IMG/VR virus record: IMGVR_UViG_3300045988_073455
Length of the DNA stretch: 64,000 nucleotides
Origin: a virus
Strand: one strand, 5' to 3'
Part shown: positions 27,589 to 51,137 of the stretch, in pieces
How the letters are laid out: each line of letters begins with the position of its first letter
Position numbering within the stretch: position 1 is the stretch's first letter
Notes under the pieces: model-generated
What the model was told of the DNA's origin: nothing
The model's input: only the letters and a program-made list of their open reading frames with translations
Database searches by the model: none
Translations under genes and position numbers: made by a program

Positions 27589-30207
27589 ATGAGACCAAAT
27601 ATCCCCAATCAAAAGAAAGCATACGATGCTCTGAACAGACGCTTAGTTAACTACGTGGCACAAGTTCTGAGCATTTATGATAGAATCGCTAGCCAAGTTT
27701 CTACTGCTATAGATGGTGTCGGTTATGATGGTTCTGCGGAGTTCTTGTTTGGGGACTATCCAGAACTGAAACAAACCATCAATGGCATCATGATCAGTTA
27801 TGCTGCACAGATGAATAATCTCATCTATGCAGGTACCGCAAATGAGTGGAAAGAAAGTAACATCATGCAGGACCTACTTGCAAGAAAGGTACTTCGTGCT
27901 TATGATTTTGAGAAGGGAGGAGATAAGTACAACAGGTATTTCCAACCTAATTCAGATGCTTTGAAGGCTTTTCAGAATAGGGTTGATAAGGGGTTGTCTG
28001 TTTCGCAGAAACTATGGTATCAGTCACAAGCCTTGAAAAAGGAGCTGGAGCATACCATATCAACTGCAATAGAAAGAGGGCAGTCTGCGGTTGTTCTCAG
28101 CAAGCGAATCAGTAAGTATCTGTTAGACTATCCTTCATTAAAGGCTGATTATACAGAAAAATTCGGAAAAGCCGCTACATGCGCGAATTGCCAATACGCT
28201 TCTATACGTTTGGCAAGAACCGAGATAAACATGGCTTACCGAAAGGCAGAGCAGACACGTTGGCAACAATTTGACTTCATCTTGGGATATGAGATTAAGT
28301 TGAGTAAACGCCATCCTGCACCAGACATCTGTGATGATTTGTTGGGAATATACCCAAAAGACTTTGTCTTCCTAGGTTGGCATCCTAACTGCATGTGTTA
28401 TGTTGTACCTATTGTGATGAGCGATGAAGAGTACTATGGTTCTCCTTCCATTCAGAAGTCAGCTATGATTTCTCGCACCCCAAAGAACTTTAATGACTGG
28501 GTACGCAATAACCGCAGCCGAATCGGGCAAGCTGAAACACTTCCATACTTCTTGAAGGATAACAGAAAGTATTGGCACCTGTCCGTTGAGGACGCGGCTG
28601 AGTACCGCCATGCTGACAGAGACGAAAAAGCCATAAAGCTTGCTTGGAAGAACAGAGACTTATTGAAATACAACATAGATGTAGATAATTCTGACATAGC
28701 AACATTAAGGCGAAATGCTAAAGCCTATGAAGTTGATATATCAAGCTTTGAAAAATTCCTCACTACACATCAATTTAAAGAGAGTTTTGGAATGCTGACT
28801 GATAGTGAACGTTCTGTTTTGTCAGATATGTTCGACAAGTATGATGACAAGGTTCGTCAAGCTGTAGAGTATTTCGGCAGGACAAAGAAAAGTTATCTAG
28901 CAAAGTTTGATTATAGCTATAATTTCGGCGATTGGAGGGATGGCATAACTAATAAGTTTGCAAATATCACTCCTACACAATTCGAACCAGTGAGCAAGAT
29001 AAAACCAAAGTTGAAGGCTACCTATGATGAAGCTCGTAGGGAACTGCAAGACCTTCGTTCTATTCCGTTGAAGCCTAAGAAGCTAATAGATGATTTCGAT
29101 GATTGGGAATTGGAGACTGCATTAGACGACCAGGAAGCAGTTATGGCAGGAAAGAAACTCATGCAAAATCTGTATGGTCCAAACATTGATAACGTCAATT
29201 CTTGGATAAGAGTAGAATCGGCTCGCATAACAGAAGGCTGGGGCAAGGCTTATGAGGTCTTTCTTGACGAGTATCATAACGGCTTGAAGGAGGTCATGGA
29301 AGCTGCTACCCATCTGAACGAATTGAGAACAGCAGATTTGAGTATTATTCCTACAAGATGGATTCCTCGCTTCAATGATTATATCAAGACTATAGAAACT
29401 GCAAGGATTGATGTCCGAGGTTACGAAAGGGTTTATCGTGAGATAGAGGGTGCGTACAACATCTACAAGCTGTCTTCGGATCAAGATTTGATTGCGTATG
29501 GCTTAGATAAGCTATCCTTCAATACACCTCATACCATCGTGGAAGGCTTTAGAGGTATTGGATTGAGTCCGACCAAATGGCTCGGAAAGAAAGAGTTTTA
29601 TGATAGCTTTGACAAGTTTGTTCCTTGTATTAGCCTTAGCGGAAACAAAGCATACTTTTGGAGCAAATACAATCATGTGCGAATAGACTTCGATGGTCTG
29701 AAGGAAAGAATCTTAAATTCAGAATGGTATCGCAAGGGTCTCCAATATCACGAATACGGACACGCTAAAGCCGCATTACAAGGTAATTGGGAAGAAAATG
29801 CAGACTTCAAAAATCTTTATAAAAGGTTTTTTGCTGACTACAACAAGCCCGAATATAGATACGTAGATGGAGAAGGTGTTTCGCAATGGAAAATCGCTGA
29901 TAGACTATTTGAAGAGCTCAAACTCGTAAAAGACAAAACGTATGATGTAATGGAACAATTTGGCAAAATCTCTGATACTTTGCAAGCTATCGACAAAGAT
30001 CACAACTGGATACAGGGAATGTTAGGACACGACGTCGATTACTTCGCATCGAGTTCGCATAATTGTTTAGCTGATATTATAGCCCATTTAAGCGAAAATT
30101 ATTGGTCTAACAATAAATACTTCAAAAAGGTTTTGCCAAGGCTTTATAATGAAGCTATGGCTCTCTATGAGAAGTATTATAAGCTAAACAAACCGACAAA
30201 AAGATAG
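27589..30207 (+). CDS. MuF/SPP1-gp7-like minor head protein fused to a long C-terminal extension with an HExxH metallopeptidase-like motif
   Basis: IRLARTEINMAYRKAE and WHPNCMCYVVP are MuF hallmarks. LQYHEYGHAKAA lies near residue 715. Confidence 0.8.
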   Translation: MRPNIPNQKKAYDALNRRLVNYVAQVLSIYDRIASQVSTAIDGVGYDGSAEFLFGDYPELKQTINGIMISYAAQMNNLIYAGTANEWKESNIMQDLLARKVLRAYDFEKGGDKYNRYFQPNSDALKAFQNRVDKGLSVSQKLWYQSQALKKELEHTISTAIERGQSAVVLSKRISKYLLDYPSLKADYTEKFGKAATCANCQYASIRLARTEINMAYRKAEQTRWQQFDFILGYEIKLSKRHPAPDICDDLLGIYPKDFVFLGWHPNCMCYVVPIVMSDEEYYGSPSIQKSAMISRTPKNFNDWVRNNRSRIGQAETLPYFLKDNRKYWHLSVEDAAEYRHADRDEKAIKLAWKNRDLLKYNIDVDNSDIATLRRNAKAYEVDISSFEKFLTTHQFKESFGMLTDSERSVLSDMFDKYDDKVRQAVEYFGRTKKSYLAKFDYSYNFGDWRDGITNKFANITPTQFEPVSKIKPKLKATYDEARRELQDLRSIPLKPKKLIDDFDDWELETALDDQEAVMAGKKLMQNLYGPNIDNVNSWIRVESARITEGWGKAYEVFLDEYHNGLKEVMEAATHLNELRTADLSIIPTRWIPRFNDYIKTIETARIDVRGYERVYREIEGAYNIYKLSSDQDLIAYGLDKLSFNTPHTIVEGFRGIGLSPTKWLGKKEFYDSFDKFVPCISLSGNKAYFWSKYNHVRIDFDGLKERILNSEWYRKGLQYHEYGHAKAALQGNWEENADFKNLYKRFFADYNKPEYRYVDGEGVSQWKIADRLFEELKLVKDKTYDVMEQFGKISDTLQAIDKDHNWIQGMLGHDVDYFASSSHNCLADIIAHLSENYWSNNKYFKKVLPRLYNEAMALYEKYYKLNKPTKR

Positions 30208-33300: not shown

Positions 33301-33849
33301 ATGGAACAGAAGTTATTAGATTTGATTATCCATATAGGACAAGTTAGAGGTTGGGCTGTAGATGCTACAGATAATGGCAATGACTTTGCCTACATCTTCT
33401 TTCAGCGTTATTCTCCTGCTGGTCAAGATTTCAACATGTCAATCGAAATGCCAAACAATGACCCGAATGAGTTTTTGAAGAACCTCGATGATTACTACGA
33501 GAACTTCGATCCAGATAGTGAAGCCCTAAACCGGTGTGACAAAGAAGGTCATGGTATAAATGGAGCACCCAAACGCTTGAAGGATATCATCATTGATTTC
33601 GAGGAAATCGAAAAGGAAATCAAAGAACTCCTAGAAGTGTTCAATCTTCAAATAGAGGAACTAGAGAAAGCTGCCATTCACAAGGTTAAAGTGCAAGTCA
33701 CCGAATACCTGCAAAAGGTAGTGGAGGTTGATGCCATCAATGGCAGTGACGCATGCGATAAAGTCGAAGAAATGGTTAATGGATCAGAAATCATCTTGAC
33801 AGCAGACGATTTCACAACAAGAAACATTGAGCCTTATGAAGATAAGTAA
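33301..33849 (+). CDS. acidic hypothetical protein
   Basis: 182-aa ORF. Start lies within TTAGAGCAATGGAA. Confidence 0.6.
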   Translation: MEQKLLDLIIHIGQVRGWAVDATDNGNDFAYIFFQRYSPAGQDFNMSIEMPNNDPNEFLKNLDDYYENFDPDSEALNRCDKEGHGINGAPKRLKDIIIDFEEIEKEIKELLEVFNLQIEELEKAAIHKVKVQVTEYLQKVVEVDAINGSDACDKVEEMVNGSEIILTADDFTTRNIEPYEDK

Positions 33850-34856: not shown

Positions 34857-34887
34857 TTTGTTGATTAAATAATTTTATCTATCTTTG
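34857..34887 (+). promoter_or_regulatory. promoter (TTTG-N19-TATCTTTG); 65-bp cassette shared with 46022-46088
   Basis: GAAAATAATTTCTCACTTTTTT..AAACTATTTGTTGATTAAATAAT is conserved in both copies. Confidence 0.6.
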
Positions 34888-34905: not shown

Positions 34906-35304
34906 ATGAAGATTTATACATCATACTTCTCAAACGGAGCTAAGTTAGCAAAAGCTGGTATCATGATGATCGGCATTGCCCTCTACCCTCCGAAATGGTT
35001 TACAGGATTATCAAACAAGTACGTGTCACCATCATGGGACATTCTTCACAACTCCAAATCGGAAGAAGATTACGTACAACGTTTCAATTCTGAGATATTG
35101 GCTCATCGGGACCCAAAAGCATTTCTCTCAGCAATAGAGAAAATGGCAAATGGAAAAGATGTAGCTCTATGTTGCTTCGAAAAGCCAGATGATTTTTGCC
35201 ATCGCCACCTAGTGGCAAAATGGCTGAATGAAAAGCTGGGAGTGCAGGTCGAGGAATTTGGAATTTCCAAGAATCCTGTTTACTCGGAGCAAAGCTTGTT
35301 TTAG
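34906..35304 (+). CDS. DUF488-family protein
   Basis: MKIYTSYFSN...VALCCFEKPDDFCHRHLVAKWL matches the DUF488 pattern. Confidence 0.7.
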   Translation: MKIYTSYFSNGAKLAKAGIMMIGIALYPPKWFTGLSNKYVSPSWDILHNSKSEEDYVQRFNSEILAHRDPKAFLSAIEKMANGKDVALCCFEKPDDFCHRHLVAKWLNEKLGVQVEEFGISKNPVYSEQSLF

Positions 35305-35389
35305 GAATTCCTCCTTTCAAAATACACACAATGGTTGACGGCTCGGAAAGACGAGCATTTTTGCGTGTATAGAATATTGTTATTATAAG

Positions 35390-35462
35390 CGGAGATAGCT
35401 CAGTTAGCAGAGCGCAGTGATACCATCACTGAGGTCGTTGGTGCGGCTCCAACTCTCCGCTC
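35390..35462 (+). tRNA. tRNA-like gene, anticodon ACC (Gly) by manual folding; atypical D and T loops
   Basis: Fold: GCGGAGA-TA-GCTC-AGTTAGCA-GAGC-G-CAGTG-ATACCAT-CACTG-AGGTC-GTTGG-TGCGGCT-CCAAC-TCTCCGC. The cloverleaf is perfect, but the T loop is TGCGGCT and the D loop has no GG. Confidence 0.6.
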
Positions 35463-35467
35463 TTTTG

Positions 35468-35541
35468 CGGGTATAGCTCAGTCGGTCAGAGCGTTACATT
35501 CCCAATGTGAAGGTCGAAGGTTCGAGTCCCTCTAGCCGCTC
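35468..35541 (+). tRNA. tRNA-Gly(CCC)
   Basis: Fold: GCGGGTA-TA-GCTC-AGTCGGTCA-GAGC-G-TTACA-TTCCCAA-TGTGA-AGGTC-GAAGG-TTCGAGT-CCCTC-TAGCCGC. There is one acceptor-stem and one T-stem mismatch. Confidence 0.75.
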
Positions 35542-35569: not shown

Positions 35570-36637
35570 ATGAAAATAGCAGTTATAGGAACGGGCAACG
35601 TGGGAGTAGCTTTTGCCGCAGACCTCTCTATTAAAGGTCATGAAGTTACACTCCTAAAGACATCTTCATACAAATCAGATGCCTTTGATAGACTTATCAA
35701 GAACGGCAAAAGGGTTTTTCTTAAAGAGAAATCAACTTATATAGAAACTGCAATCAAAGAGGTTTCTAAAGACCTCAGTAAGGTTGCAGAAGCAGAAGTT
35801 ATATTTTGTACTATTCAGAGTAACTTCTATGAGGGTCTAGTAGAACGTATACATCAATACCTTCACAATGATCAGATTGTTGTCTGTATCTCTAGTTACG
35901 CATCCTCTTTCTATTTTGAGAAACATTGCAGAAAACTACCAATGTTAGTTGAAGCAACAGGTCCATATTTGGAAGGACGAGTAGAGTTGGATGATAAACC
36001 AAACGAAGTTGTTTTTCGTGTTGGTTATAGGCATGAAGTTATTCCTGTAGCATGCTTTTCTAATCATGATACCTGCATGGAGAAACTGCATAAAATTAGC
36101 AAAGGTTTTATAGCAAAATATTGCGTGCTTGAATCTGCATTACTCAATCCAAATATGGTGTTGCATACGGTAGGTTCAATTATGAGTATTCCGAGAATAG
36201 AATATTCAAAGGGAAATTTCTGTATGTATCGTGAAGCATACGCAAGAGGAAATGACTCCACCATCAATCTATTGATGAGACTTGACGAAGAAAAGATGAA
36301 AGTCTTAAAAAGCTTGGGCTTTTTCAAAACAAGCGTATTTGAAGCAGGAGGTTTTAATATGTCAGACCCAATAGAGAGTTTGCATCGTTACTCAGAATCT
36401 AGTGATAGAGCCATCAGCCCAACATCTGTTCACTCACGTTACATCACAGAAGACGTTTCAGAGGGATTGGTACTGATGGAGAGTATTGCACTTCATATAG
36501 GCTTAGAGTTACCAGTTACATCATCCCTCATTACGCTTGCAAGTGTAGCTTTAGGAATAGACTTCCGTAAGACAGGAAGAACTATTCAGAGATTAGGTAT
36601 TATTAACGAAATAGATATGCTTCATGAATGTAGATAG
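35570..36637 (+). CDS. NAD(P)-dependent opine (octopine/nopaline) dehydrogenase-family protein
   Basis: Rossmann motif MKIAVIGTGNVG. LLNPNMVLHTVGSI...FCMYREAY...LDEEKMKVLKSLGF and RYITEDVSEGLV fit the Octopine_DH C-domain pattern. Confidence 0.7.
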   Translation: MKIAVIGTGNVGVAFAADLSIKGHEVTLLKTSSYKSDAFDRLIKNGKRVFLKEKSTYIETAIKEVSKDLSKVAEAEVIFCTIQSNFYEGLVERIHQYLHNDQIVVCISSYASSFYFEKHCRKLPMLVEATGPYLEGRVELDDKPNEVVFRVGYRHEVIPVACFSNHDTCMEKLHKISKGFIAKYCVLESALLNPNMVLHTVGSIMSIPRIEYSKGNFCMYREAYARGNDSTINLLMRLDEEKMKVLKSLGFFKTSVFEAGGFNMSDPIESLHRYSESSDRAISPTSVHSRYITEDVSEGLVLMESIALHIGLELPVTSSLITLASVALGIDFRKTGRTIQRLGIINEIDMLHECR

Positions 36638-38702
36638 CGATATAAAAAACAGAACATTTGGTATTGAAATCGAAATGTGCAATCTTGAAAGGGCGAAGGT
36701 AACTTTGCCCGAAGGTTACTCCTGGAGCAAGGAAGAGAGCATTGATAATACCGATTGTTCAAGCAATAAGCAGTTTGGTGGAGAGGTAAATACCCCTCCA
36801 CTACATCTTTGCTGCCTAAAGGAATTGCACGACCTCCGCTCTGTATATGAATCAATGGTTGCTGCAGGTGGCAGGCTAAAATGGAGCATCTACACCCATG
36901 TGCACATTTATGTCGGTGATTTACCTGTTGATCAGATAAAGAAAGTATTCCTATTCTTCTATCTGTGTTACCATTATTTTAAGCAGTATGCTAAAATATC
37001 AGAATGCGATGAGCTTATATCCATAGCGATGCCAACTCCAACGGAAAAGTATTATAAAGGAGTCCTGCAGGCTCAGACTTTCGAGGATATTCAGAAGTTA
37101 TTCACTAACAACTCAAACAAAGGTTTCATACGTCATGCAGTGAATATTTCTGCATATTTTAAGACAAAGACGATAGAGTTTAGACTTTATCATGCTACTG
37201 ATGATTTCTATCAAGCTATGGCTTGTGTTCTTTCCACATACAGGCTATTTTATTACGCTATAAGCCACGAATTGGAGGATTTCAAATCAATTACATCATA
37301 CCAGCAGTTCTGTGAGGTTACTGGGCTTAAATATGATGTTCCAGACGAATTATGTCCGCTAATCTACCAAGGAAATCCATACGACAAGGTAGAGTCGTAT
37401 ATGACAAAGCCTTTACCATACAATTCTGAAATGGTTTCAGCTCTGTATGATGCTGTAAAAGCTAACGGACACAAGGAAATCTGCATAGTAAATGGCTTCA
37501 TGTATTACTATGAGTTATTCTTCCTTGATAAGATGGAAGTATCTATATACTGCCAAGATGCCTACTGTTATCTGCTCTATATGTTGGCAAATGGTAAAAC
37601 ATCACTAACATATAAGGATAAGCTTGCATGGTTGGAGGACTATAACAATTCTACACCATCAAGACAGCTTGCTTTGGCTCTTTATGCGGTGAAACTGCAA
37701 AAGTATTTCATGAGTGAATCGGCAAGAAATAGTGCCATCTTCGAAGCGTTGAAAATTAAGGCAAGGGAATCTATCGAGAAAACCGAGGAGGCAAATGAGC
37801 GATTGATGAGATTACTCACTACATGTGATTTCCATGTCGGAACACTAGAAGAAGCCATCAAGAATAAGAAGGTAATCTTCTTTAATTACGGAAGAATAGA
37901 GAAAAAGCAGAAGAGAGCATTCAAACTCATTTCTGAGAATAGTGACTTGAAATCAGACTTTTCTGTTGCAAGGAACGACTACTATAATCTTGTGGAAAGT
38001 ATTCCGAGTGATAGTTATTTCTATTATTTCAGCAACAGCCCTTATCTGAGAAACCTGCATAAGATAGCTATGTGGAATAATTCAAGTGGGGAAAGACGGT
38101 CTGCAGGAAGGTTCCTATATTGCAATAAGCCAACTGCACAAAACAATGCAAGCACCTCGTATTCTTCATACAGAATCGAATGCAATGAGATAGTTCCTCC
38201 AGATGATTTGGAGATTACAGACGCAAATAAGCTAAAGATTGAACGAGTAACCCCTCCTTTACTTCATTGCTTGCAAAAGAAGTATATCAAGAAGGTGGAC
38301 CAATGTAGTGTCTGTCAATTTGCTTTTGTGGTGAAATACGACAAATATACCCTAGGTGGATTTGGTTTTACGCTACCTCAACACAAGGGGTATGATTTGT
38401 TTCAGTTAACGGACTTCTGCACGAATAACGCAATCCCTCGATTGAGTAAACTCATACTGTACTGCATTCAGTCTGTAGGCGTTCAAAGATATGTGAGCAG
38501 AAGAATGCGCAAGCTTTGCGAGAAGGTTATCTCCTGCGCTTATACCCATAAGCCAGTGAGTATGAAATATCGTGGCGTATACAAGAAAGTGAAGGAACAC
38601 TGCACATCATCTTATCTTGCTTACGAAGGAATACTTGGTATATACCCTACGAATAAGAAAATCATTGAGAAATATCAAAAATCGTTGAAGAATGGAAAAT
38701 GA
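36624..38702 (+). CDS. glutamine-synthetase-like amidoligase (Amidoligase_2-type N-domain) fused to about 450 aa of unassigned sequence
   Basis: Motifs RTFGIEIEMC, FGGEVNTPP, YTHVHIYVG and KTIEFRLYHATDD. Overlaps the upstream stop by 14 nt. Confidence 0.7.
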   Translation: MNVDSDIKNRTFGIEIEMCNLERAKVTLPEGYSWSKEESIDNTDCSSNKQFGGEVNTPPLHLCCLKELHDLRSVYESMVAAGGRLKWSIYTHVHIYVGDLPVDQIKKVFLFFYLCYHYFKQYAKISECDELISIAMPTPTEKYYKGVLQAQTFEDIQKLFTNNSNKGFIRHAVNISAYFKTKTIEFRLYHATDDFYQAMACVLSTYRLFYYAISHELEDFKSITSYQQFCEVTGLKYDVPDELCPLIYQGNPYDKVESYMTKPLPYNSEMVSALYDAVKANGHKEICIVNGFMYYYELFFLDKMEVSIYCQDAYCYLLYMLANGKTSLTYKDKLAWLEDYNNSTPSRQLALALYAVKLQKYFMSESARNSAIFEALKIKARESIEKTEEANERLMRLLTTCDFHVGTLEEAIKNKKVIFFNYGRIEKKQKRAFKLISENSDLKSDFSVARNDYYNLVESIPSDSYFYYFSNSPYLRNLHKIAMWNNSSGERRSAGRFLYCNKPTAQNNASTSYSSYRIECNEIVPPDDLEITDANKLKIERVTPPLLHCLQKKYIKKVDQCSVCQFAFVVKYDKYTLGGFGFTLPQHKGYDLFQLTDFCTNNAIPRLSKLILYCIQSVGVQRYVSRRMRKLCEKVISCAYTHKPVSMKYRGVYKKVKEHCTSSYLAYEGILGIYPTNKKIIEKYQKSLKNGK

Positions 38703-39420
38703 AGATAGATGGAAATACGCAAAAGTTGATATAAACCTCATAGATGAGGTAGAAATCAATGCAAATGAAATGTCGGGTGAAGACTTCGCCCAACTAACAG
38801 ACAACATTGCTAAGTCTGGATTGAGTAGTGTGCCTACCTGTATCAAGAAGGATAATGGTAGATACATCATGATCAGCGGTAATCATCGTTTGAGAGCATG
38901 CAAGAAACTGCACTATAAAATGCTAGGCATCTTATATGTAGAAGAGAGCGAGATTACAAATGATGAAGCTATTGCTATTGAATTATCTCACAACTCCCTT
39001 CATGGTGAAGCTAATGTTAGCATCTTGAAGAAGTTGTTTGCATCAATTCAATCTATCGACTTCAAGAAGTTTGCTCATGTGAACATTGACGAGATTAAGC
39101 CCATAAGCACAGAGGGTATAAATGTATATGCCATGCAGGAGAATTTCGTATTCACAATCATCCTCTACCCTAGCTCATTTGCAAGTCTGGACACATTGTA
39201 TGGGGATATTCGTGAACAAGCTCGCAAAAGTGATGCTCTCGTTCTAGCTTCCGAAGAAGATAACGAGAAAACCCTGCTTAAAATCCAACAAGAGATAGGT
39301 AAGGAGTTTGGCATAAAATCCCCAAGCATCACATTTGCAAAGTTGCTAGAGTTAGCAAGTGAACGTTTAACCGAAATAAAGGAAGGAGAAAAAGAAAATG
39401 ATTTGGAGCATAACAAGTAA
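38692..39420 (+). CDS. ParB N-terminal-domain (ParB/sulfiredoxin-fold) protein
   Basis: VDINLIDEVE...RYIMISGNHRLRACKKL...AIAIELSHN fits the ParBc pattern. 11-nt overlap with the upstream gene. Confidence 0.7.
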   Translation: MENEDRWKYAKVDINLIDEVEINANEMSGEDFAQLTDNIAKSGLSSVPTCIKKDNGRYIMISGNHRLRACKKLHYKMLGILYVEESEITNDEAIAIELSHNSLHGEANVSILKKLFASIQSIDFKKFAHVNIDEIKPISTEGINVYAMQENFVFTIILYPSSFASLDTLYGDIREQARKSDALVLASEEDNEKTLLKIQQEIGKEFGIKSPSITFAKLLELASERLTEIKEGEKENDLEHNK

Positions 39421-40255
39421 GAAGGAAATGGAAGAACTGAATACACCTTCAGTTTTCAGATATTACCAAGAAGCACTTGGTAGAGAAAATATCCAATTAG
39501 CAGTTGTTGACGAGACAGACAACCTCGACTTCATTGACAAAGAGGATGTCGTATTGCTAAGAACTGCAAGTGAGTTACTCATCAATACAATCCGAAAAAA
39601 AGGTGTAAGGACCACGGCAGAAGATTTTAGCAAGTACGAACTTGTAAGGGATAAAGCTAAACTTGCAAGATGGCTTACAATGAATGGTATTAGAGTACCA
39701 CATCAGTATCATCAGGTGTTTGACTTGCACGGAAAAACTTATTTCGTAAAGCCTAGATATGGAAGTGATAGTGTTGGTATCTCTGAACTAAACATCTGTC
39801 ACACCGCGGATGAAATCAGAGTTCAAACAAAAAAGCTTGATCCGAAAGGTAAAGGAGACGTTGTTATAGAAGACTTTATAAATGGAAGAGAATTTACGGT
39901 TGTCTGCATAAAAGGCTTTCCCCTCAGAACATTTGTAATGGAGGTAATCTGTACAACAAATGGCGGCATCCAAACATACGAAAGCAAGAAAAACTATATG
40001 GAGGTCGGCTGCAAGGTCTATGGAGATTTAGATGATAGGGCTAAGAGGATAGCTTCCGATGTTTTCTCCAGTCTTGGGTTACAACATCATGCACGTATTG
40101 ATATGCGCTGCGATAATGAAGGTAACCTTTACGTGATAGACGTCAATCTCCTTCCTGGTCTCGGACCTATTGGAGATTTAGCACGTTGCTTGTTGCTAAC
40201 AGAAAATATGTCTTACATAGATGCTTTGAAAGCAGTCATAGCATCTGCAAGTTAG
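39398..40255 (+). CDS. ATP-grasp ligase (D-Ala-D-Ala-ligase-like)
   Basis: Motifs KAKLARWLTMNGIRVP, YFVKPRYGSDSVGI, VVIEDFINGREFTV and ARIDMRCDNEGNLYVIDVNLLPGLG. 23-nt overlap with the upstream gene. Confidence 0.8.
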   Translation: MIWSITSKKEMEELNTPSVFRYYQEALGRENIQLAVVDETDNLDFIDKEDVVLLRTASELLINTIRKKGVRTTAEDFSKYELVRDKAKLARWLTMNGIRVPHQYHQVFDLHGKTYFVKPRYGSDSVGISELNICHTADEIRVQTKKLDPKGKGDVVIEDFINGREFTVVCIKGFPLRTFVMEVICTTNGGIQTYESKKNYMEVGCKVYGDLDDRAKRIASDVFSSLGLQHHARIDMRCDNEGNLYVIDVNLLPGLGPIGDLARCLLLTENMSYIDALKAVIASAS

Positions 40256-40266
40256 AAAGGTTGATT

Positions 40267-40620
40267 ATGACAAAGGTAAGAAGAACAGAATTAAAAAAAA
40301 TTGCCGCTGCTTATGAAAAGAAAGGCGGCAATATGGCTGCTACGGCAGTAGCTTTGGGCATTACACGACAAGCCTTATATAACTGGCGAAAAGAGGATGA
40401 GAAGTTAGCCAAGATGTTGGATGATATAGATGAAGGCATTCTTGACTTTACTGAAAGCAAGCTGGTCGAAAAGGTGAACGAAGGTAATCTAACTGCAATA
40501 ATCTTCCTTCTGAAAACTAAGGGCAAGAAGCGTGGCTATGTCGAGCAAGTAGATAACAGATTAGTAGAAAACCCATTCGAGAAGTTAATGAAGGAGCTTC
40601 CCGATGATGAAGAAGGATAA
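40267..40620 (+). CDS. terS: terminase small subunit (HTH type)
   Basis: AATAVALGITRQALYNWRKEDEKL (HTH), LTAIIFLLKTKGKKRGY, and position upstream of terL. Confidence 0.65.
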   Translation: MTKVRRTELKKIAAAYEKKGGNMAATAVALGITRQALYNWRKEDEKLAKMLDDIDEGILDFTESKLVEKVNEGNLTAIIFLLKTKGKKRGYVEQVDNRLVENPFEKLMKELPDDEEG

Positions 40621-40622
40621 TT

Positions 40623-40952
40623 ATGTATAACGGAGAATTGTATATACCAGACTGTTTGTTTCCTACGGACAATCCGTTGGAGATACCATGTTTGTTGTCT
40701 GATGTGCAACCTCAGTACATAGAAATCCCATTCTATTGCTTTGGTGAGCAGGCAAGAACAACGAATATGAATGGCAGGGGAACACTCCACTTCTATACTG
40801 ACGATTATAGATTCCGGTCAATCTATGAGAAGCCAGAGAAGATTTTGAAGTACAACCCTGGCAGTATTATTGAGCCAAACTTCAGCTTATCAAATGATAC
40901 TCCAATAGCTTTTGAGAACCATGAGCATGAGTTCTATAGGTGGGGGGAATAA
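40623..40952 (+). CDS. DUF4417-like protein, apparently N-terminal part only
   Basis: LHFYTDDYRFRSIYEKPEKIL...IEPNFSLSNDTP matches the DUF4417 core. The ORF ends just after a G6 tract at 40938-40943. Confidence 0.5.
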   Translation: MYNGELYIPDCLFPTDNPLEIPCLLSDVQPQYIEIPFYCFGEQARTTNMNGRGTLHFYTDDYRFRSIYEKPEKILKYNPGSIIEPNFSLSNDTPIAFENHEHEFYRWGE

Positions 40953-41403
40953 GCAAGAAAGCTTCAGTGGCACCAAATCTTATGGCTTCAAGCTCGGTGG
41001 AAGAGATGTTGAAGCAAACTTTAAAAACGGAGCTATTGAAAAAATAGATCAGTACTTTAATCTCTCAACAAAGGATAGGTCTAGATTGCGTAACGCTGTG
41101 TCACACGTTCTTGGGAATACTTTGAATAAAACCAAGGGAAATGAGGTTGATGAGTATATGGTTGGCGGTTTCGATGGAACAGGACTTCGTATAATATCCT
41201 CTAGAAATAATTTTACAAAAAATATGATGATGGTAGATAAGTATGGAGTCGTCGAATATGGCAAGGGAACAGTCGACCCGTATTTGTTTAGAGGCGAAGA
41301 CATCAACCCTAAAGTGTTTAGTAAAGTATTAGACAGGGCGTTAAGAGCGCTTAAAAATCCATATAATGGAGATATAAAGCATAGAGATAAATGGAATATA
41401 TAA
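40912..41403 (+). CDS. hypothetical protein (start uncertain; overlaps the upstream ORF in the +1 frame)
   Basis: 163-aa ORF. Confidence 0.4.
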   Translation: MRTMSMSSIGGGNKQESFSGTKSYGFKLGGRDVEANFKNGAIEKIDQYFNLSTKDRSRLRNAVSHVLGNTLNKTKGNEVDEYMVGGFDGTGLRIISSRNNFTKNMMMVDKYGVVEYGKGTVDPYLFRGEDINPKVFSKVLDRALRALKNPYNGDIKHRDKWNI

Positions 41404-41927: not shown

Positions 41928-43442
41928 ATGTCAGAACAGAAAGCAATAAAAAAAATGATTGCATGGCGCAATGATTGGTGTCTCTTCGCTAAGGAAGTCT
42001 TGAAGGCTCGCCTTGACGAAGAGCAAAAGGCTATATTGCGTTCTGTTCAAAAGAACAAAATGACAACGGTAGCCAGTGGAACTGCAAGGGGTAAGGACTT
42101 CATCGCTGCCGTAGCCGCTTTATGTTTTCTATACCTCACTCCTCGCTTCGGCAAGGATGGTAGTTTAGAAAAGAACACCAAGATTGCCCTTACAGCACCA
42201 ACAGGAAGACAGGTAACAAACATCATGATACCAGAAGTGGCACGTCTTTACAAAAAGGCAGGCTTCCTGCCTGGTCGTTTGCTGTCGGATGGCATCAGAA
42301 CTGATTATGAGGAATGGTATCTGACAGGTTTCAAATCTTCAGCCGACAACACAGAGGCTTGGTCGGGATTCCATGCTGTAAACACCATGTTCATCGTAAC
42401 AGAAGCATCCGGTATCTCGGACACCATCTATAATGCAATCGAGGGTAACCTGCAAGGTAACTCTCGATTGCTATTGGTATTCAACCCAAACGTTACTACA
42501 GGGTATGCAGCCAACTCCATGAAGTCTCCCAGATTCAAGAAGTTTAGATTATCATCTCTCAACGCAGAGAACGTAGTAAGCAAGAAAAACATTATCCCTG
42601 GTCAAGTTGACTATGAATGGGTATCCGATAAGGTCTCAGCATGGGCACAGAAGATCAGAAAGTCTGAGTTTGATGAAGGTCGTGGTGATTTTGTGTGGGA
42701 AGGTGGATATTACACTCCAAATGACCTTTTTCGTGTTAAGGTTCTCGGTATGTTTCCGAAGGTGTCCGAAGATACCCTCATTCCATACGAATGGTGCGAG
42801 ATTGCCCATAGAAGATGGAAGGAACTTAAAGATAGTGGCTTTATCACCCATAAGCCAATACGCTTAGGTGTCGATGTCGCAGGTATGGGTCGCGATAGGT
42901 CTTGCTATGTTCCACGACAAGGAAATTATGTTTCAGAAATCAAGTGTCATAATTCGGGTGGTCATGCGGACCACATGGCAGTCGCAGGTCAAGTCGCACA
43001 CTACCTAAGTTTGAGTTCAAAGAATAAAGCATTCATTGATACCATTGGAGAAGGTGCTGGAGTTTATTCAAGACTCATAGAGCAAAAGTATTTAACTGCA
43101 TTCTCTTGCAAGTTCTCGGAAGGCGTGAGAAACAAGCATGATGTGACAGGCTGCTACTCTTTCGCTAACATGAGGGCTTATCTGTTTTGGTGCATACGTG
43201 ACTGGCTCAACCCAAAGAATGGATTCTTTGCAGCACTCCCACCTGACGATGAGTTGGATCAAGAATTGTGCGAAGTGCATTGGCTGTTTCAGTCAGATGG
43301 TTCAATCATCATGGAACCAAAAGACGAAATCAAGAAGCGTCTGAAACGTTCTCCCGACAAGATGGATGCCCTTGCCAACACCTTCTATCCATACGACTTC
43401 GATAGAGACAATGATTTGCAATTGTTAAATAGTATAGTATAA
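41928..43442 (+). CDS. terL: terminase large subunit
   Basis: 504 aa with the P-loop-like VASGTARGKDF and Walker-B-like MFIVTEASG. Synteny with terS. Confidence 0.75.
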   Translation: MSEQKAIKKMIAWRNDWCLFAKEVLKARLDEEQKAILRSVQKNKMTTVASGTARGKDFIAAVAALCFLYLTPRFGKDGSLEKNTKIALTAPTGRQVTNIMIPEVARLYKKAGFLPGRLLSDGIRTDYEEWYLTGFKSSADNTEAWSGFHAVNTMFIVTEASGISDTIYNAIEGNLQGNSRLLLVFNPNVTTGYAANSMKSPRFKKFRLSSLNAENVVSKKNIIPGQVDYEWVSDKVSAWAQKIRKSEFDEGRGDFVWEGGYYTPNDLFRVKVLGMFPKVSEDTLIPYEWCEIAHRRWKELKDSGFITHKPIRLGVDVAGMGRDRSCYVPRQGNYVSEIKCHNSGGHADHMAVAGQVAHYLSLSSKNKAFIDTIGEGAGVYSRLIEQKYLTAFSCKFSEGVRNKHDVTGCYSFANMRAYLFWCIRDWLNPKNGFFAALPPDDELDQELCEVHWLFQSDGSIIMEPKDEIKKRLKRSPDKMDALANTFYPYDFDRDNDLQLLNSIV

Positions 43443-43480: not shown

Positions 43481-43547
43481 GAAACGTTACCTTTAACGTT
43501 TCATTGCTCTTAGTGCACTCCGACCGTGAGGTTAGAGTGCATTTTTT
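43481..43547 (+). ncRNA. candidate small RNA or 3'-UTR element carrying an antisense copy of the phage start motif
   Basis: Possible promoter TTTG (43444) -N20- TAACTTTG (43468-43475). 5' hairpin AAACGTTA/TAACGTTT (43482-43501), exposed CATTGCTCTTAG (43502-43513), and terminator TGCACTC/GAGTGCA (43514-43541) plus T6. Confidence 0.35.
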
Positions 43548-45024: not shown

Positions 45025-45201
45025 ATGGAAGAGAACGTTATCATAGCAATGGATGCCGAAAAGTCTAAAAAGATAAAAGGCATTCCTTCAAGTTGGGACT
45101 GGGAAGATATTCATTTCTACCTCATTACTGAATTGGGATTCAATTTTGATGTTGTGTTCAATTATTCAAAAGACATAGAGGAGGTATCTTATGAAGGATA
45201 A
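45025..45201 (+). CDS. small hypothetical protein (58 aa, not in the track)
   Basis: ATAGAGCAATGGAA start. Overlaps the radC-like start by 11 nt. Confidence 0.45.
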   Translation: MEENVIIAMDAEKSKKIKGIPSSWDWEDIHFYLITELGFNFDVVFNYSKDIEEVSYEG

Positions 45202-45871
45202 TGCAAGAACTATCAAGTACGATTCTATCACATCATACGTAAAGGAATATGGGGTAGAATATCTTAGTAACGAGAACCTTATTGCTTCAATTATCGGTAT
45301 AGACCCTATGCTACAGGGTAATGAACCAATAAGAAAAATCTTTGATGGTAGTCATTCCCTCAGAAAGACAAGCAAGAGTACATTGCAGGAGCTTACATCT
45401 ATCAAAGGAATAGGTGAAAAGAAGGCTACCGCTATACTCGCTGCATTCGAACTTGGCAGAAGATTCATGAAAGAGAAGTCGCAAGAACTTACAGATTTGG
45501 GTAGTTCTCTCGACATCTACAACTATATTTTACCATACGTCAAGGATTTAGAAATAGAAGAATCTTATCTGTTCTGTATGGATAGCAACTTCAAGTTAAT
45601 CAAAATGGTTCGATTGTCACAAGGTGGAATATCAGAAACCACTATAGACGTAAGAATTGTGTGTAAAGAAGCTATCTCCTGCAATGCCGTAATAATAGCA
45701 TTGGTTCACAATCATCCAAGCCCTAACTGCTTTCCATCAAAGTCTGACGATGAGATAACATATAAGATACAGAAGGCTTGTGAAATTATGAGATTGTATT
45801 TTATGGACCACGTTATCATCAGTAGCAAGTCCGATCAGTATTACTCTTACCACGACAAAGGGAGACTATAG
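45191..45871 (+). CDS. radC: RadC-like JAB/MPN-domain protein
   Basis: HhH-like SIKGIGEKKATAILAAFELGRR and the JAMM motif LVHNHPSPNCFPSKSD. Confidence 0.85.
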   Translation: MKDNARTIKYDSITSYVKEYGVEYLSNENLIASIIGIDPMLQGNEPIRKIFDGSHSLRKTSKSTLQELTSIKGIGEKKATAILAAFELGRRFMKEKSQELTDLGSSLDIYNYILPYVKDLEIEESYLFCMDSNFKLIKMVRLSQGGISETTIDVRIVCKEAISCNAVIIALVHNHPSPNCFPSKSDDEITYKIQKACEIMRLYFMDHVIISSKSDQYYSYHDKGRL

Positions 45872-45982: not shown

Positions 45983-46010
45983 CAAGGGAGGGCTGTGAAG
46001 TTCTCCCTTG
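45983..46010 (+). terminator. hairpin (8-bp perfect stem) after radC
   Basis: CAAGGGAG (45983-45990) pairs with CTCCCTTG (46003-46010). No clear T-run follows. Confidence 0.4.
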
Positions 46011-46054
46011 ATTATTGAAATGAAAATAATTTCTCACTTTTTTTGCAAAAACTA

Positions 46055-46085
46055 TTTGTTGATTAAATAATATTTCGTATATTTG
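46055..46085 (+). promoter_or_regulatory. putative late promoter (TTTG-N19-TATATTTG)
   Basis: The cassette is shared with 34825-34889. It precedes the scaffold and capsid genes. Confidence 0.55.
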
Positions 46086-46159
46086 CACCCATAAAAGCGT
46101 GTGAAGATGCACGTGACAGAACTTTTCGTAACATTGCTCTTACACCGAGTTCTACGTTT

Positions 46160-46193
46160 GGTCTGCCTGCATTTCGCTCGCAGACCATTTTTT
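46160..46193 (+). terminator. intrinsic terminator inside the late-operon leader
   Basis: GGTCTGC (46160-46166) pairs with GCAGACC (46180-46186), followed by ATTTTTT. It lies between the promoter and the scaffold ATG at 46216. Confidence 0.6.
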
Positions 46194-46215
46194 GTTAAAT
46201 ATAACTCAACAAGCA

Positions 46216-46950
46216 ATGAACAAGTATTACAGAAAAGTTCTTGAAGCACTGAAAACCAATCGAGACATTAAGGCATTGGGGTTCAGTCGTAAGGAGTTAA
46301 AGGGTGTTGCCGCCAATGTTGCCAACAAACTTCAACTCAAAGATGATGCTACTGACGAAGAAGTTAGTGAAGGTATTAGTGACGCAATTGATGATGTCTT
46401 GCCGTTACTCCAGTTAACTCAGTCCGCAGCTGACCGCCAAGTCTCAGAGTACAAAAACGCTCATCCTGCACCCGATGATGACGATGATCCAGATGACGAT
46501 CCAGATGATGATGACGATCCAGCACGTAGAAGTCCGTCACGGAAGGGCAAGAAGGGCAAGAAGGATAGCGATGATGATGACTCCGCTACCCTCAACGCAA
46601 TCAAGGAACTTACGAAGGCTGTTGCTACACTCCAAGGTGATGTAACTGCATTGAAGTCTGGCAATACCACAAACAGCCGTACCGCAAAGGTAAGGGAACT
46701 GCTGAAGGACACAGGTAAGTTCGGAGAGCGTCGACTTAAATCTTTCTCTCACATGAAGTTTGAGAATGAAGAGGAGTTTGAGGACTACCTCGATGAGTTG
46801 AAGGAAGATATTGAGGAAGAGAACAAGGAAAGACTTGAAAAGGGTCTTGAAAAGCTTGGACGAATCCCTGCTCCCGATACCAAACCTCAGCCAAAGGAGG
46901 AAGATAAGTTAATGTCTGATGATGAAGTCAAGAGGCTGGCTAAGATGTAA
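46216..46950 (+). CDS. scaffolding protein (acidic, coiled-coil)
   Basis: Position before the capsid gene, D/P-rich acidic tract, and helical charged C-terminus. The ATG follows AGCAATGAAC. Confidence 0.6.
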   Translation: MNKYYRKVLEALKTNRDIKALGFSRKELKGVAANVANKLQLKDDATDEEVSEGISDAIDDVLPLLQLTQSAADRQVSEYKNAHPAPDDDDDPDDDPDDDDDPARRSPSRKGKKGKKDSDDDDSATLNAIKELTKAVATLQGDVTALKSGNTTNSRTAKVRELLKDTGKFGERRLKSFSHMKFENEEEFEDYLDELKEDIEEENKERLEKGLEKLGRIPAPDTKPQPKEEDKLMSDDEVKRLAKM

Positions 46951-46983
46951 TCATCTATTGTTTCACTAATAAATTATTAGATT

Positions 46984-47385
46984 ATGGTAGCAGAAGACTA
47001 CAAGCCAAAAACCAAAGGCTACGACATGGGTAAGGACGCTGTGGTTATCCGTCAGTATCTCGGTGGTATCACAGGCGGTAGAGCACTCGACTACGCCAAC
47101 TTCAAGGATGAGGTTATTCAGGCAGGTCACATCATTGTCCGCAAGAAGGTTGATGATGTTTATGAGTATTCTCCACTTGAAACCGAAGGCGGTAAGTACA
47201 AAGACAAGACTAGTGATGCAGAATTTGCTGGTGTTGTTGTTCGCTCACGCATGAAGGGTGAAGCGGTTGCCATTATGGATAATGGTCGCGTGAATGATGT
47301 TGCAATGCCTTATCAGTTCAAGGACGGAACTCAGAGAACCGCCATCAAGACCGCTCTCCCAAGTCTTATTTTTGAGCATGACTAA
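46984..47385 (+). CDS. head-associated hypothetical protein
   Basis: 133-aa ORF between the scaffold and capsid genes. Confidence 0.5.
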   Translation: MVAEDYKPKTKGYDMGKDAVVIRQYLGGITGGRALDYANFKDEVIQAGHIIVRKKVDDVYEYSPLETEGGKYKDKTSDAEFAGVVVRSRMKGEAVAIMDNGRVNDVAMPYQFKDGTQRTAIKTALPSLIFEHD

Positions 47386-47421
47386 GTTGTGCTCTAGTTT
47401 TTAACTTAAAAGATTGTTTAT

Positions 47422-48783
47422 ATGAACGAATCACTTTTTATTCAGTTTATTCGTGCTATCTTCCCTAAACTTAGCTTGTATGTTAAGGAGAAGGAGAATC
47501 CGAAGGAGCGCACCTACCTCTACAAGGAGATGCTTACCGATGTGTATTCTGCCGATCAGAAATGGGAAGGTTCATCAGCTAAGACCACATATGTAGCTGC
47601 CGACATCGTTGAGATGGATTCAGACATTCCTTTGAAGAAGCGTGGTCAAATCGCAACCTCTAATGGTAAGTTGCCAAAGATTGCGATGAAGAAGATTCTC
47701 ATGGAGTCTGACATCAACAACATCAACATTATGAAGGCTCAGTACGAGAACCTTGTAGCAAGAGCCAACTCATTCCAGGCGCAAGGTTTGGTTGAGCAGG
47801 CTGCATCAACACGACAGGCTGCTGAAACTGCAAAGGCTCGTATCATCAACAAGCTCATGAATGATGGTGTCGCTTGCTCTGTCGGTCTCGAAGAGCGTAA
47901 CGAAATGAACTTCTTGGCTGGTCTCTCTAATGGTATTATTGCCGTTGAAGATGCAGACAATTCGGGTAAGGCTATCCGTGTTGACTATGGTTACATGAAG
48001 GCTAACTCTTTCAAAACAGCAACCAATGGTGTTACTACCCGTGATGATTTCGAGAAAATCTTCGAAAAGGCAAATGCTGATGGTAATACCATCATACAGG
48101 TTATGCTCGCTAAGACGCAGATTAAGAAAATCCGCAAGGAGCAGTGGGCGAAAGAACTTGTTGCCGACTACGAGGGTAAGACTTATACCGAAAATACCAA
48201 GCTCAAGACACCATCGGAGTCAGCTTTCTCGGAAGCATTCGAGGATGAGTTCGGTGCAGCCATCAAGGTTATCAACAGAACCGTGATTATCGAGAAGAAC
48301 GGAAAGCAGCACTCTCTCAAACCATGGAATGAGGATAACATTATCTTCATCTGTAACACCAACGTAGGCTCTTTCGTTTGGGGTACCCTTGCAGAGGACA
48401 CCAACCGAGTAGCAGGTGTTCAGTACTCTAACGTTGACAGCTACAAGCTTATCTCTAAGTACTCCAAGAATGAGCCATCTTTGCAGGAGGTTACCGCAGG
48501 ACAGGCTATCTGCTTGCCAGTAATCGAGGACGTAGATCAGATTTACATGCTTACTACCAAGTCTGAGGAGGTTGATACAGAAGCCGAGACAGACGATACT
48601 ACCGATCAGTATACAACTTACAAGGGTAAGAAGTATAATAAGGCTAACCTCATCGCTGCTTTGAAGGCTGCTGGTGTCAATGTGAAGACTAACTCAACCG
48701 ATGAGACTCTGATTAAGGCTCTCAACTCACTCAGCGATGAGGAGGAAGCCGAAGTTCTCTCTAAACTCACTCCAGAGGTTTAA
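47422..48783 (+). CDS. major capsid protein (by synteny and size)
   Basis: 453-aa ORF after the scaffold gene. No motif-level proof. Confidence 0.6.
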   Translation: MNESLFIQFIRAIFPKLSLYVKEKENPKERTYLYKEMLTDVYSADQKWEGSSAKTTYVAADIVEMDSDIPLKKRGQIATSNGKLPKIAMKKILMESDINNINIMKAQYENLVARANSFQAQGLVEQAASTRQAAETAKARIINKLMNDGVACSVGLEERNEMNFLAGLSNGIIAVEDADNSGKAIRVDYGYMKANSFKTATNGVTTRDDFEKIFEKANADGNTIIQVMLAKTQIKKIRKEQWAKELVADYEGKTYTENTKLKTPSESAFSEAFEDEFGAAIKVINRTVIIEKNGKQHSLKPWNEDNIIFICNTNVGSFVWGTLAEDTNRVAGVQYSNVDSYKLISKYSKNEPSLQEVTAGQAICLPVIEDVDQIYMLTTKSEEVDTEAETDDTTDQYTTYKGKKYNKANLIAALKAAGVNVKTNSTDETLIKALNSLSDEEEAEVLSKLTPEV

Positions 48784-48794
48784 TTTGAATTGAT

Positions 48795-49118: not shown

Positions 49119-49121
49119 GAT

Positions 49122-50343: not shown

Positions 50344-50347
50344 GATT

Positions 50348-50950: not shown

Positions 50951-51009
50951 GGCAATATGTTGATTTCTTCTCACCCTTCAGCCGATTGAGGGTTATCAGT
51001 CGGCAACCT

Positions 51010-51117: not shown

Positions 51118-51137
51118 CTAACAAATATTATTGGCTT

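Follow-up and report, generated by a model that had tools for sequence, protein, structure and literature searches.

Why should a phage keep genes of amino-acid and peptide chemistry immediately ahead of those for its terminase? The question is raised by IMG/VR virus record IMGVR_UViG_3300045988_073455, analysed here as a 64,000-nt stretch (the window), in which an operon at 35570-40255 on the + strand encodes an opine-dehydrogenase-family enzyme (ODH), a 692-aa protein with an amidoligase domain, a ParB-like protein and an ATP-grasp ligase. A first-pass annotation of this DNA had listed, among several possible roles, an amino-acid, peptide or opine-like adduct on DNA, which is now the best-supported reading. 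By analogy with characterised systems, the favoured explanation, given slightly less than an even chance, is a late, ParB-assisted, Gly-tRNA-dependent modification of phage DNA that has been extended by the amidoligase, the ATP-grasp ligase and the ODH and would serve anti-restriction. Of its parts, the use of glycyl-tRNA has better than even odds, and DNA as the acceptor is the weaker link.

The operon lies within a longer unit that runs from a DUF488 gene to the gene of the large terminase subunit and has the following features:

34857..34887, + strand: Bacteroides-type promoter (TTTG..N19..TAnnTTTG) of the unit, predicted from a consensus match
34906..35304, + strand: DUF488-N3a gene (Pfam PF22751, E 1.1e-12); the open reading frame (ORF) opens with TTG at 34885, and the likely start is ATG at 34906
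35341..35356, + strand: terminator-like hairpin 3' of DUF488, a consensus match only
35389..35462, + strand: tRNA-Gly with anticodon ACC, 'type A' (ARAGORN; Rfam tRNA 49.7 bits)
35467..35541, + strand: tRNA-Gly with anticodon CCC, 'type B' (ARAGORN; Rfam 61.5 bits)
35570..36637, + strand: ODH, 355 aa (Pfam Octopine_DH and Rossmann domain)
36624..38702, + strand: gene of the 692-aa tri-domain protein (ORF; Pfam)
36636..37328, + strand: Amidoligase_2 domain, a GS/GCS2/PafA-like carboxylate-amine ligase (Pfam; Foldseek to YbdK 1r8g and PafA 4bjr)
37338..38213, + strand: Dam-like domain, degenerate (PF22556, E 1.1e-90; Foldseek)
38226..38684, + strand: GNAT-phage-like domain (PF22559, E 3.8e-36; Foldseek)
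38692..39420, + strand: ParB-like protein, 242 aa (phrog_7405, E 1e-67; model and Foldseek)
39398..40255, + strand: Ddl-like ATP-grasp ligase, 285 aa (Pfam Dala_Dala_lig_C / ATP-grasp_3)
40267..40620, + strand: terS, small terminase subunit with a helix-turn-helix (HTH) (PHROG terS families; Pfam HTH/GP3_package)
41928..43442, + strand: terL, large terminase subunit and last gene of the unit (phrog_2, E 3.9e-28)
43481-43502: terminator-like hairpin after terL, from a hairpin scan

The four ORFs of the operon overlap in order by 14, 11 and 23 nt; the ATP-grasp gene ends with its TAG stop at 40255, and terS opens with ATG at 40267. The coordinates given in the first-pass annotation, including the 12-nt step to terS, were thus reproduced, and its four fold calls are backed by Pfam, PHROGs, PDB sequence searches and Foldseek (by Foldseek for the ParB-like protein, which is sub-threshold in Pfam). 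Its account of the operon covered the four genes correctly and missed the DUF488 gene and the two tRNA-Gly genes, which bear most of the functional signal; both tRNA genes sit in a seemingly empty 265-nt gap. Likewise, it recognised the amidoligase part of the 692-aa protein and overlooked the Dam-like and GNAT-like domains.

Matches to the Bacteroides-type promoter number 13 in the window against 2.8 expected, and none of them falls between 34887 and 43415. The promoter of the unit is 81% identical to those 5' of the portal gene (25586) and of the head genes (46055), and it is predicted to be a late promoter. Because the next promoter of this type lies beyond terL, and because the promoter family is common to portal and head genes, DUF488 through terL would form a single late transcription unit. 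The coupling to terS proposed earlier can be read in this sense, as co-transcription with terS and terL, and the hairpin after DUF488 may attenuate transcription or let it pass. A location within a compact packaging block from portal/MuF to terS, also proposed earlier, is not borne out, as about 5 kb of small genes with their own promoters (30635, 34118) separate the MuF gene from the module; the module does have its promoter type in common with portal and head genes. Across the window, two families of near-identical Bacteroides-type promoters can be distinguished, one 5' of small-gene blocks (14739, 23547, 30635, 34118, 43744) and one 5' of the portal gene, the DUF488-terL unit and the head genes (25586, 34857, 46055).

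The 692-aa protein consists of three domains, Amidoligase_2, PF22556 ('DAM-like-phage2') and PF22559 ('GNAT-phage-like'). This full architecture matches phrog_2443 (E 2e-181), and the AlphaFold model has a predicted local distance difference test score of 87. The amidoligase domain scores 57.4 bits in Pfam against a cut-off of 22 (E 2.6e-15); its Foldseek matches are YbdK (1r8g/1tt4), GCS2, PafA (4bjr) and plant GCL, and residues E15, E17, H94, R170, T183, E185 and R187 are invariant among 24 sequences reaching down to 22% identity. The Dam-like domain resembles E. coli Dam in fold (Foldseek probability 0.9-0.98, TM-score about 0.4) and carries neither the FxGxG motif for S-adenosylmethionine (SAM) nor the (D/N/S)PP(Y/F) (DPPY) catalytic motif. 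Residues 268-692 are homologous to a family of proteins of about 430 aa (hhalign E 1e-50), in which the motifs VGCSGNF, SNDVSLYS and FPPTYxGGYE of the Dam-like domain are kept; since the amidoligase lineage has lost them, methyltransferase function is not expected of the Dam-like domain in the window protein. The GNAT-like domain is basic (isoelectric point 9.8), keeps D597, S646, K648, Y649, R650, G651 and Y667 invariant, and is matched in Foldseek by GNATs that include Naa50/60 and Mu Mom (8bv8; E 2e-3, probability 1.0).

A Segatella copri protein of 92% identity goes under the NCBI name 'GNAT-like putative antirestriction protein'. No NCBIfam model covers the 692-aa protein, the viral models matched by Foldseek were generic phage amidoligases only, and the 30 members of the 430-aa family, all scanned with Pfam, yielded no recurrent weak family. 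A PDB profile match to polyubiquitin was rejected as an artefact of repeat summation. Two variant architectures were also seen: P0199 (770 aa) has an HNH endonuclease inserted within its DAM-like-phage1 domain, and P0153 (873 aa) carries an extra N-terminal canonical acetyltransferase ahead of the amidoligase and GNAT-like domains.

The ParB-like protein combines a nucleotide-binding domain with a helical C-terminus. In Pfam, its N-domain reaches 18.4 bits for ParB_N, under the cut-off of 26.3, while Foldseek on a structure predicted from database protein sequences gives a probability of 1.0 to the nucleotide-binding domain of ParB-CTP, Noc, KorB, PadC and sulfiredoxin (Srx). The GxxR (Box II) motif 'SGNHR' is invariant in the family, and no ParA homologue was found among the neighbouring ORFs scanned. 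The protein does not appear to be a partition ParB of the ParABS type. Its gene always adjoins the GNAT-like gene and is fused to it in three loci (L144, L147, L150).

Comparative analysis indicates which parts of the unit belong together. In all 80 close relatives from IMG/VR (69-99% identity), the order is invariant: DUF488, one or more tRNAs, ODH where present, amidoligase fusion, ParB-like protein, ATP-grasp ligase, terS and terL. The module order is kept in Bacteroidota genomes down to about 25% identity, including distant prophage loci (L091-L104, 25-38%), and the arrangement is therefore not a matter of chance, with the qualification that counts within Bacteroidota are phylogenetically non-independent. 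A family search over a representative set of 1.8 billion proteins returned about 30 clusters of the full tri-domain architecture and many proteins of about 430 aa made up of DAM-like-phage1 and GNAT-phage-like. Among 56 genome loci from other phyla (Proteobacteria, Chloroflexota, Chlorobiota, Planctomycetota, Actinomycetota, Bacillota and a metagenome-assembled genome (MAG) of Methanobacterium), 55 have the 430-aa protein next to, or joined in a fusion with, a full-length ParB-like protein homologous to that of the window. Every Bacteroidota locus has DUF488 5' of the module, and most loci of the other phyla have it no more than a few kb away. The module is followed by terS in all Bacteroidota loci; elsewhere the core usually sits between replication genes and a downstream large terminase of GpA or T4 type. 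Since the Dam-like/GNAT-like and ParB-like proteins go together in seven other phyla, with DUF488 nearby in most loci, these three constitute the conserved core.

Among isolated phages, Gordonia phage Clawz and the Mycobacterium phage Taptic group carry the 430-aa form, annotated as hypothetical or as 'methyltransferase', and its pair with the ParB-like protein is labelled hypothetical in these actinophages; INPHARED contained no phage with the amidoligase form. The domain families of the module are listed in Pfam and PHROGs without a function, and PADLOC gave just two weak DUF488 matches to candidate systems. Limited literature searches, which do not prove absence, returned no description of the triad, of its linkage to tRNA-Gly or of its elaboration by amidoligase, ATP-grasp ligase and ODH.

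A second pair of genes occurs within about 5 kb of the triad in other phyla. It consists of a canonical-type ParB (N-domain and HTH, about 300 aa) and another DUF488, as at 3378-4621 in L154 and 6839-8078 in L105, and also in L106, L111-113, L123, L133, L146, L153 and L156. This pair points to a wider ParB-DUF488 partnership. An archaeal ParB-DUF488-HTH fusion binds CTP (bioRxiv 10.1101/2025.10.10.680097).

The enzymes around the core are far more variable. The ODH is a confident family member (Pfam Octopine_DH PF02317, 96.7 bits against a cut-off of 30, E 1.7e-27), and its nearest solved structure is CENDH (1bg6, residues 3-344, E 5e-17). Of the 80 IMG/VR relatives, 17 lack it (L035-46, L067, L071, L073, L075 and L076), as do most of the distant loci L091-L104. 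The ATP-grasp ligase matches Dala_Dala_lig_C / ATP-grasp_3 in Pfam (E 2.6e-15) and reaches at best 60 bits against NCBIfam/TIGR Ddl cut-offs of at least 243, which makes it Ddl-like in its C-domain type only. Among the 80 relatives, its alleles are 100, 84, about 56, about 37 and about 32% identical beside a core of 90-99% identity. Some distant Bacteroidota prophages have a second ATP-grasp gene; others have, in place of the ATP-grasp gene, that of an enzyme like lysine-ketoglutarate reductase/saccharopine dehydrogenase (PDB 8e8u, 1e-38), and still others a small GNAT with a 285-aa protein weakly like fold-type-III pyridoxal-phosphate (PLP) D-amino-acid enzymes. In the light of these comparisons, ODH and ATP-grasp ligase are swappable accessories, and amidoligase, ATP-grasp ligase and ODH are elaborations made within Bacteroidota. 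The four-enzyme operon of the first-pass annotation therefore fails as a conserved unit, with ODH missing from many loci and the ATP-grasp gene replaced (32-56% alleles), duplicated or swapped. The co-occurrence that it had envisaged does not extend across phyla for amidoligase, ATP-grasp ligase and ODH; the co-conserved and terminase-linked pair is that of the ParB-like and Dam-like/GNAT-like proteins.

The tRNA genes were called with ARAGORN on all loci and for the window also scored with the Rfam tRNA model. The type A tRNA-Gly of the window has the T-loop UGCGGCU and a D-loop without GG, and type B has a canonical T-loop on a backbone that carries ACC in six relatives. One or more tRNAs occupy this slot in 80 of 80 IMG/VR relatives, mostly as a tRNA-Gly pair. 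Within 2.5 kb of the amidoligase/GNAT-like gene, 158 of 179 tRNAs are Gly, and six more are Gly-like with 6- or 8-nt loops. The association recurs outside the amidoligase clade, where tRNA-Gly lies 0-20 nt 5' of the GNAT-like gene in L113 (Dehalococcoidia), L137 (Anaerolineaceae), L138 (a Gleimia europaea prophage, which also keeps the order DUF488, tRNA, enzyme, ParB) and L162 (Mycobacterium phage Taptic), and 750 nt 5' of it in L216. In this group, tRNAs within 1 kb are Gly in 5 of 5 cases, against 2 of 20 at more than 2.5 kb (Fisher p = 4e-4).

Alignment of 58 distinct tRNA sequences shows 22 base pairs that are 95.6% paired, 17 of them with compensatory changes. G1-C2-G3, C35, C36 and U73, which are identity elements of bacterial glycyl-tRNA synthetase (GlyRS), are invariant or nearly so. 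Position 34 is A in 21 sequences, U in 25, C in 11 and G in one, and switches between backbones that are otherwise identical. U33 is lost in 13 of the 58, anticodon loops of 6 or 8 nt occur, 24 of the 58 T-loops start with UGC, and one paralogue combines a UGC T-loop with a D-loop lacking GG. Since the GlyRS identity elements are kept while decoding features decay, the phage tRNA-Gly fits a chargeable carrier that would act outside decoding. Additionally, the type-A tRNA of L045 has its ACC mutated to ACG, and some rumen and environmental relatives (L061-L079) have true tRNA arrays (Asn, Ile, Met, Lys, Ser, Arg) between DUF488 and ODH, for example at 6434-6916 of L061.

Taken together, the favoured explanation can be set out as a sequence of steps. 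Host GlyRS would first charge the phage tRNA-Gly, whose degenerate anticodon loops and, in one paralogue, degenerate T-loop would bar it from translation and leave it a glycyl carrier. The basic GNAT-like domain would then move the glycyl group onto a base of double-stranded phage DNA before packaging, the target by analogy with Mu Mom being N6 of adenine, while the degenerate Dam-like domain would contribute DNA binding or base flipping. The ParB-like protein would be the obligate partner that enables the enzyme or clamps it on double-stranded DNA. In the Bacteroidota lineage, the fused amidoligase could add an ATP-dependent amide bond, for instance by joining a carboxylate to the free glycyl amine. 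Finally, the swappable neighbours (ATP-grasp ligase and ODH; elsewhere the saccharopine-dehydrogenase-like enzyme, the PLP-like protein and the small GNAT) may make or tailor the attached moiety, and related phages would end up with different side chains of a peptide- or opine-like kind. In this full form, with non-decoding viral tRNA-Gly feeding a ParB-assisted Dam-like/GNAT DNA aminoacylation and with amidoligase and swappable enzymes building a peptidyl or opine side chain, the proposal is tentative and clearly less secure than its general outline.

Several observations weigh against this explanation. Donor, acceptor, order of the steps and product are inferred from the observed genes, folds, synteny, fusions and tRNA features. 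The Dam-like assignment consists of a Pfam name and a moderate fold match (TM-score about 0.4); hhalign of the family with E. coli Dam is not significant (probability 0.2). The GNAT-like domain stands outside the Mom family by sequence: its profile aligned with Mu Mom by hhalign at a probability of 0.1 (E 0.59), and Foldseek places Mom no nearer to it than ordinary protein acetyltransferases. PDB profile searches with the two family alignments returned neither Dam nor Mom. The ParB-like protein is acidic and shows no HTH or DNA-binding domain in its model or in Pfam. The explanation gives DUF488 no role, and reactions of Ddl-like, racemase-like and Fem-like type are just as characteristic of the making of cell-wall peptides. 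Moreover, most loci outside Bacteroidota (most of L105-L160) have no tRNA, and in a second IMG/VR set of 80 further loci of the 430-aa family only three have tRNAs, one of them Gly; the tRNA link is therefore lineage-restricted rather than universal. Four relatives (L062, L064, L066, L079) have other tRNAs and no tRNA-Gly in the slot, which must therefore also be a general tRNA insertion site.

Among the alternatives, a protein target is improbable, yet it accounts for part of the data. Here the GNAT-like/amidoligase protein, perhaps packaged or acting early, would aminoacylate or peptide-tag a restriction enzyme, the terminase or a virion protein, in the manner of L/F-transferase, of PafA-type ligation or of polyvalent-protein effectors. 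Its fold matches do include PafA and protein N-acetyltransferases, polyvalent-type counter-defence domains lie beside the head genes (the ArdC-N+MPTase protein at 24441-25460 and the MuF-ADP-ribosyltransferase protein at 27589-30207; PMC5512222), the NCBI name states only 'antirestriction', and an acidic ParB-like protein without a DNA-binding domain would suit such a role. The obligate ParB partner and the Dam-like fold nevertheless point to DNA, the promoter is of a late type, and the module is kept immediately 5' of the terminase in unrelated phage lineages. No fusion of the 692-aa/430-aa family to MuF, portal or MPTase was seen.

Equally improbable is a function at the envelope or in small-molecule metabolism, where a Fem/PacB-like Gly-tRNA transferase and the amino-acid enzymes would remodel peptidoglycan precursors or make a peptide or opine metabolite for superinfection exclusion, lysis timing or signalling. 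Non-decoding tRNA-Gly is classically tied to Fem transferases, which counts in favour of this idea, as does the fact that the accessory enzymes are all of amino-acid/peptide types typical of cell-wall or opine metabolism. In addition, phrog_2443 adjoins gamma-glutamyl cyclotransferase in Clostridium prophages, and phage Amidoligase_2 proteins are proposed, in the passage of PMC11318856 that cites Iyer 2009, to modify cell-wall receptors. This function would leave unexplained why the ParB-like partner is universal and sometimes fused to the GNAT, and why there are a Dam-like domain and a terminase linkage; moreover, most of the family lacks the accessories, and the core is shared by hosts whose envelopes differ greatly, the archaeal MAG among them.

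The absence of any link between the parts is less probable still. The tRNA-Gly genes could be ordinary decoding tRNAs in an insertion hot-spot, or substrates of the GNAT as with TacT-type toxins, and the enzymes loose moron genes. The Asn, Ile, Met, Lys, Ser and Arg tRNAs in some relatives, the four slots without Gly, the lack of tRNAs in most non-Bacteroidota loci and the acetylation of Gly-tRNAGly by TacT (PMC13219725) agree with this. However, normal decoding is not compatible with A34, loss of U33, 6- and 8-nt loops and T-loops that start with UGC, in tRNAs whose stems covary and whose GlyRS elements are invariant, tRNA-Gly lies independently beside the GNAT-like gene in four phyla, and overlapping start and stop codons with strict synteny speak against a loose gene set. 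A packaging accessory, with the ParB-like protein as a pac-site or partition-type DNA-binding or nicking protein working with terS among unrelated neighbours, is very improbable: only the ATP-grasp gene separates the two, ParB-nuclease and ParB-methylase genes commonly adjoin terminases, and proteins of this fold include known nicking enzymes and NTPases (PMC5512222), but there is no HTH and no ParA, and across three unrelated terminase types the ParB pairs or fuses with the GNAT-like protein and not with terS.

The remainder of the window contains further genes of counter-defence or conflict type. An ArdC-N + MPTase-PolyVal (zincin) protein at 24441-25460, a classic anti-restriction/polyvalent module, lies directly 5' of the SPP1-type portal gene (25635-27065). 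The 872-aa MuF-like head-morphogenesis protein at 27589-30207 is fused to a region that matches a PHROG of Bxa-type ADP-ribosyltransferases and is likely a packaged effector. Others are a DpnD/PcfM-like gene (33301-33849), a RadC/JAB gene just after terL (45191-45871) and a gene for an nSTAND3-like NTPase (13582-14196). At the left end of the window lie an HSDR_N-domain protein (104-1159, - strand) and an ordinary C5-cytosine methyltransferase with a PCQ motif (2031-3014, + strand); a methylation function of a separate kind is thereby present in the phage or its flank. The DUF4417 gene at 40623-40952 corresponds to the N-terminal 109 aa of a 250-aa protein in L085 (12010-12762). The ORF at 40912-41403 was considered as the C-terminal part of a frameshifted gene and rejected; because this following ORF is unrelated, the DUF4417 gene looks truncated or replaced. 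Elsewhere DUF4417 is fused to ParB (phrog_940). In the head/tail block (46000-60000), G+C rises from about 0.36-0.40 to 0.43-0.48 with high AT skew, which suggests that the structural module is of mosaic origin.

The module is common in Segatella/Prevotella prophages of the human gut and rumen, and protein WP_118201114 marks Segatella copri strains that carry this prophage. To our knowledge, Mu Mom (2026) is so far the one demonstrated case of tRNA-dependent DNA modification. If the favoured explanation is true, such modification would also be the work of another GNAT family, unrelated to Mom in sequence and far more widespread, with the first phage-borne non-translational carrier tRNA that feeds DNA modification and the first peptidyl/opine DNA hypermodification. 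It would also predict new glycyl-peptide or opine-like adducts whose variable tailoring enzymes record an arms race of restriction and anti-restriction in abundant gut Bacteroidota phages, offer a testable function for DUF488, PF22555, PF22556, PF22559 and phrog_7405, and give one explanation of 'odd' phage tRNAs with impossible anticodons. In practical terms, the enzymes could serve site-directed DNA functionalisation, and the adducts could explain gut phage DNA that resists cutting or sequencing. There is a real chance that the module defines a new class of DNA adduct. Should the acceptor be something other than DNA, the tRNA-Gly/GNAT/ParB module beside the terminase would still be a widespread, unexplained phage system.

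Comparison with known systems places the module among amino-acid-derived modifications. Thymidine hypermodification also yields amino-acid-derived phage DNA adducts by means of variable tailoring enzymes, and its donors are free amino acids, not tRNA. Pfam/PHROGs domain scans of about 40 window ORFs, with small ORFs covered in part, found no aGPT-Pplase/AADT-pathway enzyme, 5-hmdU kinase (5-HMUDK) or hmU-forming enzyme, in agreement with the first-pass annotation, which had set this pathway aside. The staphylococcal Fem aminoacyl-transferases have a GNAT fold and transfer to a peptidoglycan-precursor acceptor from a dedicated, non-proteinogenic tRNA-Gly, which keeps GlyRS identity, has altered D- and T-loops (G-U-G-C T-arm) and has no role in translation. 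Unlike the module, Fem systems belong to cells rather than viruses and lack ParB and Dam-like components. Phage Amidoligase_2 systems (Iyer et al. 2009; phrog_2443) share the GS-like amidoligase domain; the neighbours described in the passages that treat them are GATase and gamma-glutamyl-cyclotransferase, and no C-terminal Dam-like/GNAT-like half, ParB or tRNA link is described there.

Closer parallels come from phage pathways that act on DNA in the presence of ParB. An ATP-dependent amide ligase extends 5-carboxymethylcytosine with glycine, and ParBc genes lie in the same contigs (PMC12783734). This CmoA/CmoX/CmoY system resembles the module in having an ATP-dependent amide ligase that acts on a base adduct, ParBc nearby and diversified ligase specificities. 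It differs in that the ligase is asparagine-synthetase-like (AMP-forming) and not GS/GCS2-like and that the handle comes from a C5-methyltransferase homologue with Cx-SAM. The C5-methyltransferase of the window (2031-3014), with its ordinary PCQ motif, was rejected as a candidate for CmoX-type carboxymethylation, and no CmoA-like match was found among the window ORFs scanned. In the 5mYOX/ParB systems, phage thymine dioxygenases are activated on double-stranded DNA by ParB homologues that have no DNA-binding domain, and such pathways often have ParB and terminase genes close by (PMC13229309). The module likewise has a ParB made up of a nucleotide-binding domain and a C-terminal domain, without a DNA-binding domain, beside a putative post-replicative DNA-modifying enzyme, with the terminase near. 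Its partner would be a GNAT instead of an Fe/2OG dioxygenase, phrog_7405 (motif 'LSHNS..GEDD') is a distinct family, and ParB dependence is here only proposed.

The nearest characterised mechanism is that of Mu Mom, a GNAT that moves glycine from Gly-tRNAGly to N6 of dA in double-stranded DNA, after which the adduct rearranges to 6-NcmdA (momylation; Silva et al., Nat Commun 2026, PMC13219725). The first-pass annotation had set Mom aside, which is right for family membership and misleading as to mechanism, Mom being Gly-tRNA-dependent. Both systems have a phage enzyme of GNAT fold with late expression and a basic nucleic-acid-binding surface, these last two being predicted for the module, and anti-restriction, proposed here, would be common to them; the Gly-tRNAGly donor of Mom would have its counterpart in the cis-encoded tRNA-Gly genes. 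Mom works alone, as one 231-aa enzyme that draws on host tRNAs, and shows no sequence homology to the module, in which the GNAT-like domain is fused to Dam-like and amidoligase domains, has ParB-like and DUF488 neighbours and is accompanied by its own non-decoding tRNA-Gly. The catalytic residues of Mom (R111, S124, D149 and R151) and its HTH-like insertion stand against an invariant set peculiar to this family, with no reliable residue-level alignment between them. Because further ligases would follow, the product is probably not 6-NcmdA. The module may thus be likened to Mom joined by a ParB activator and an amide ligase, a likeness offered as a functional analogy and not as a family assignment.

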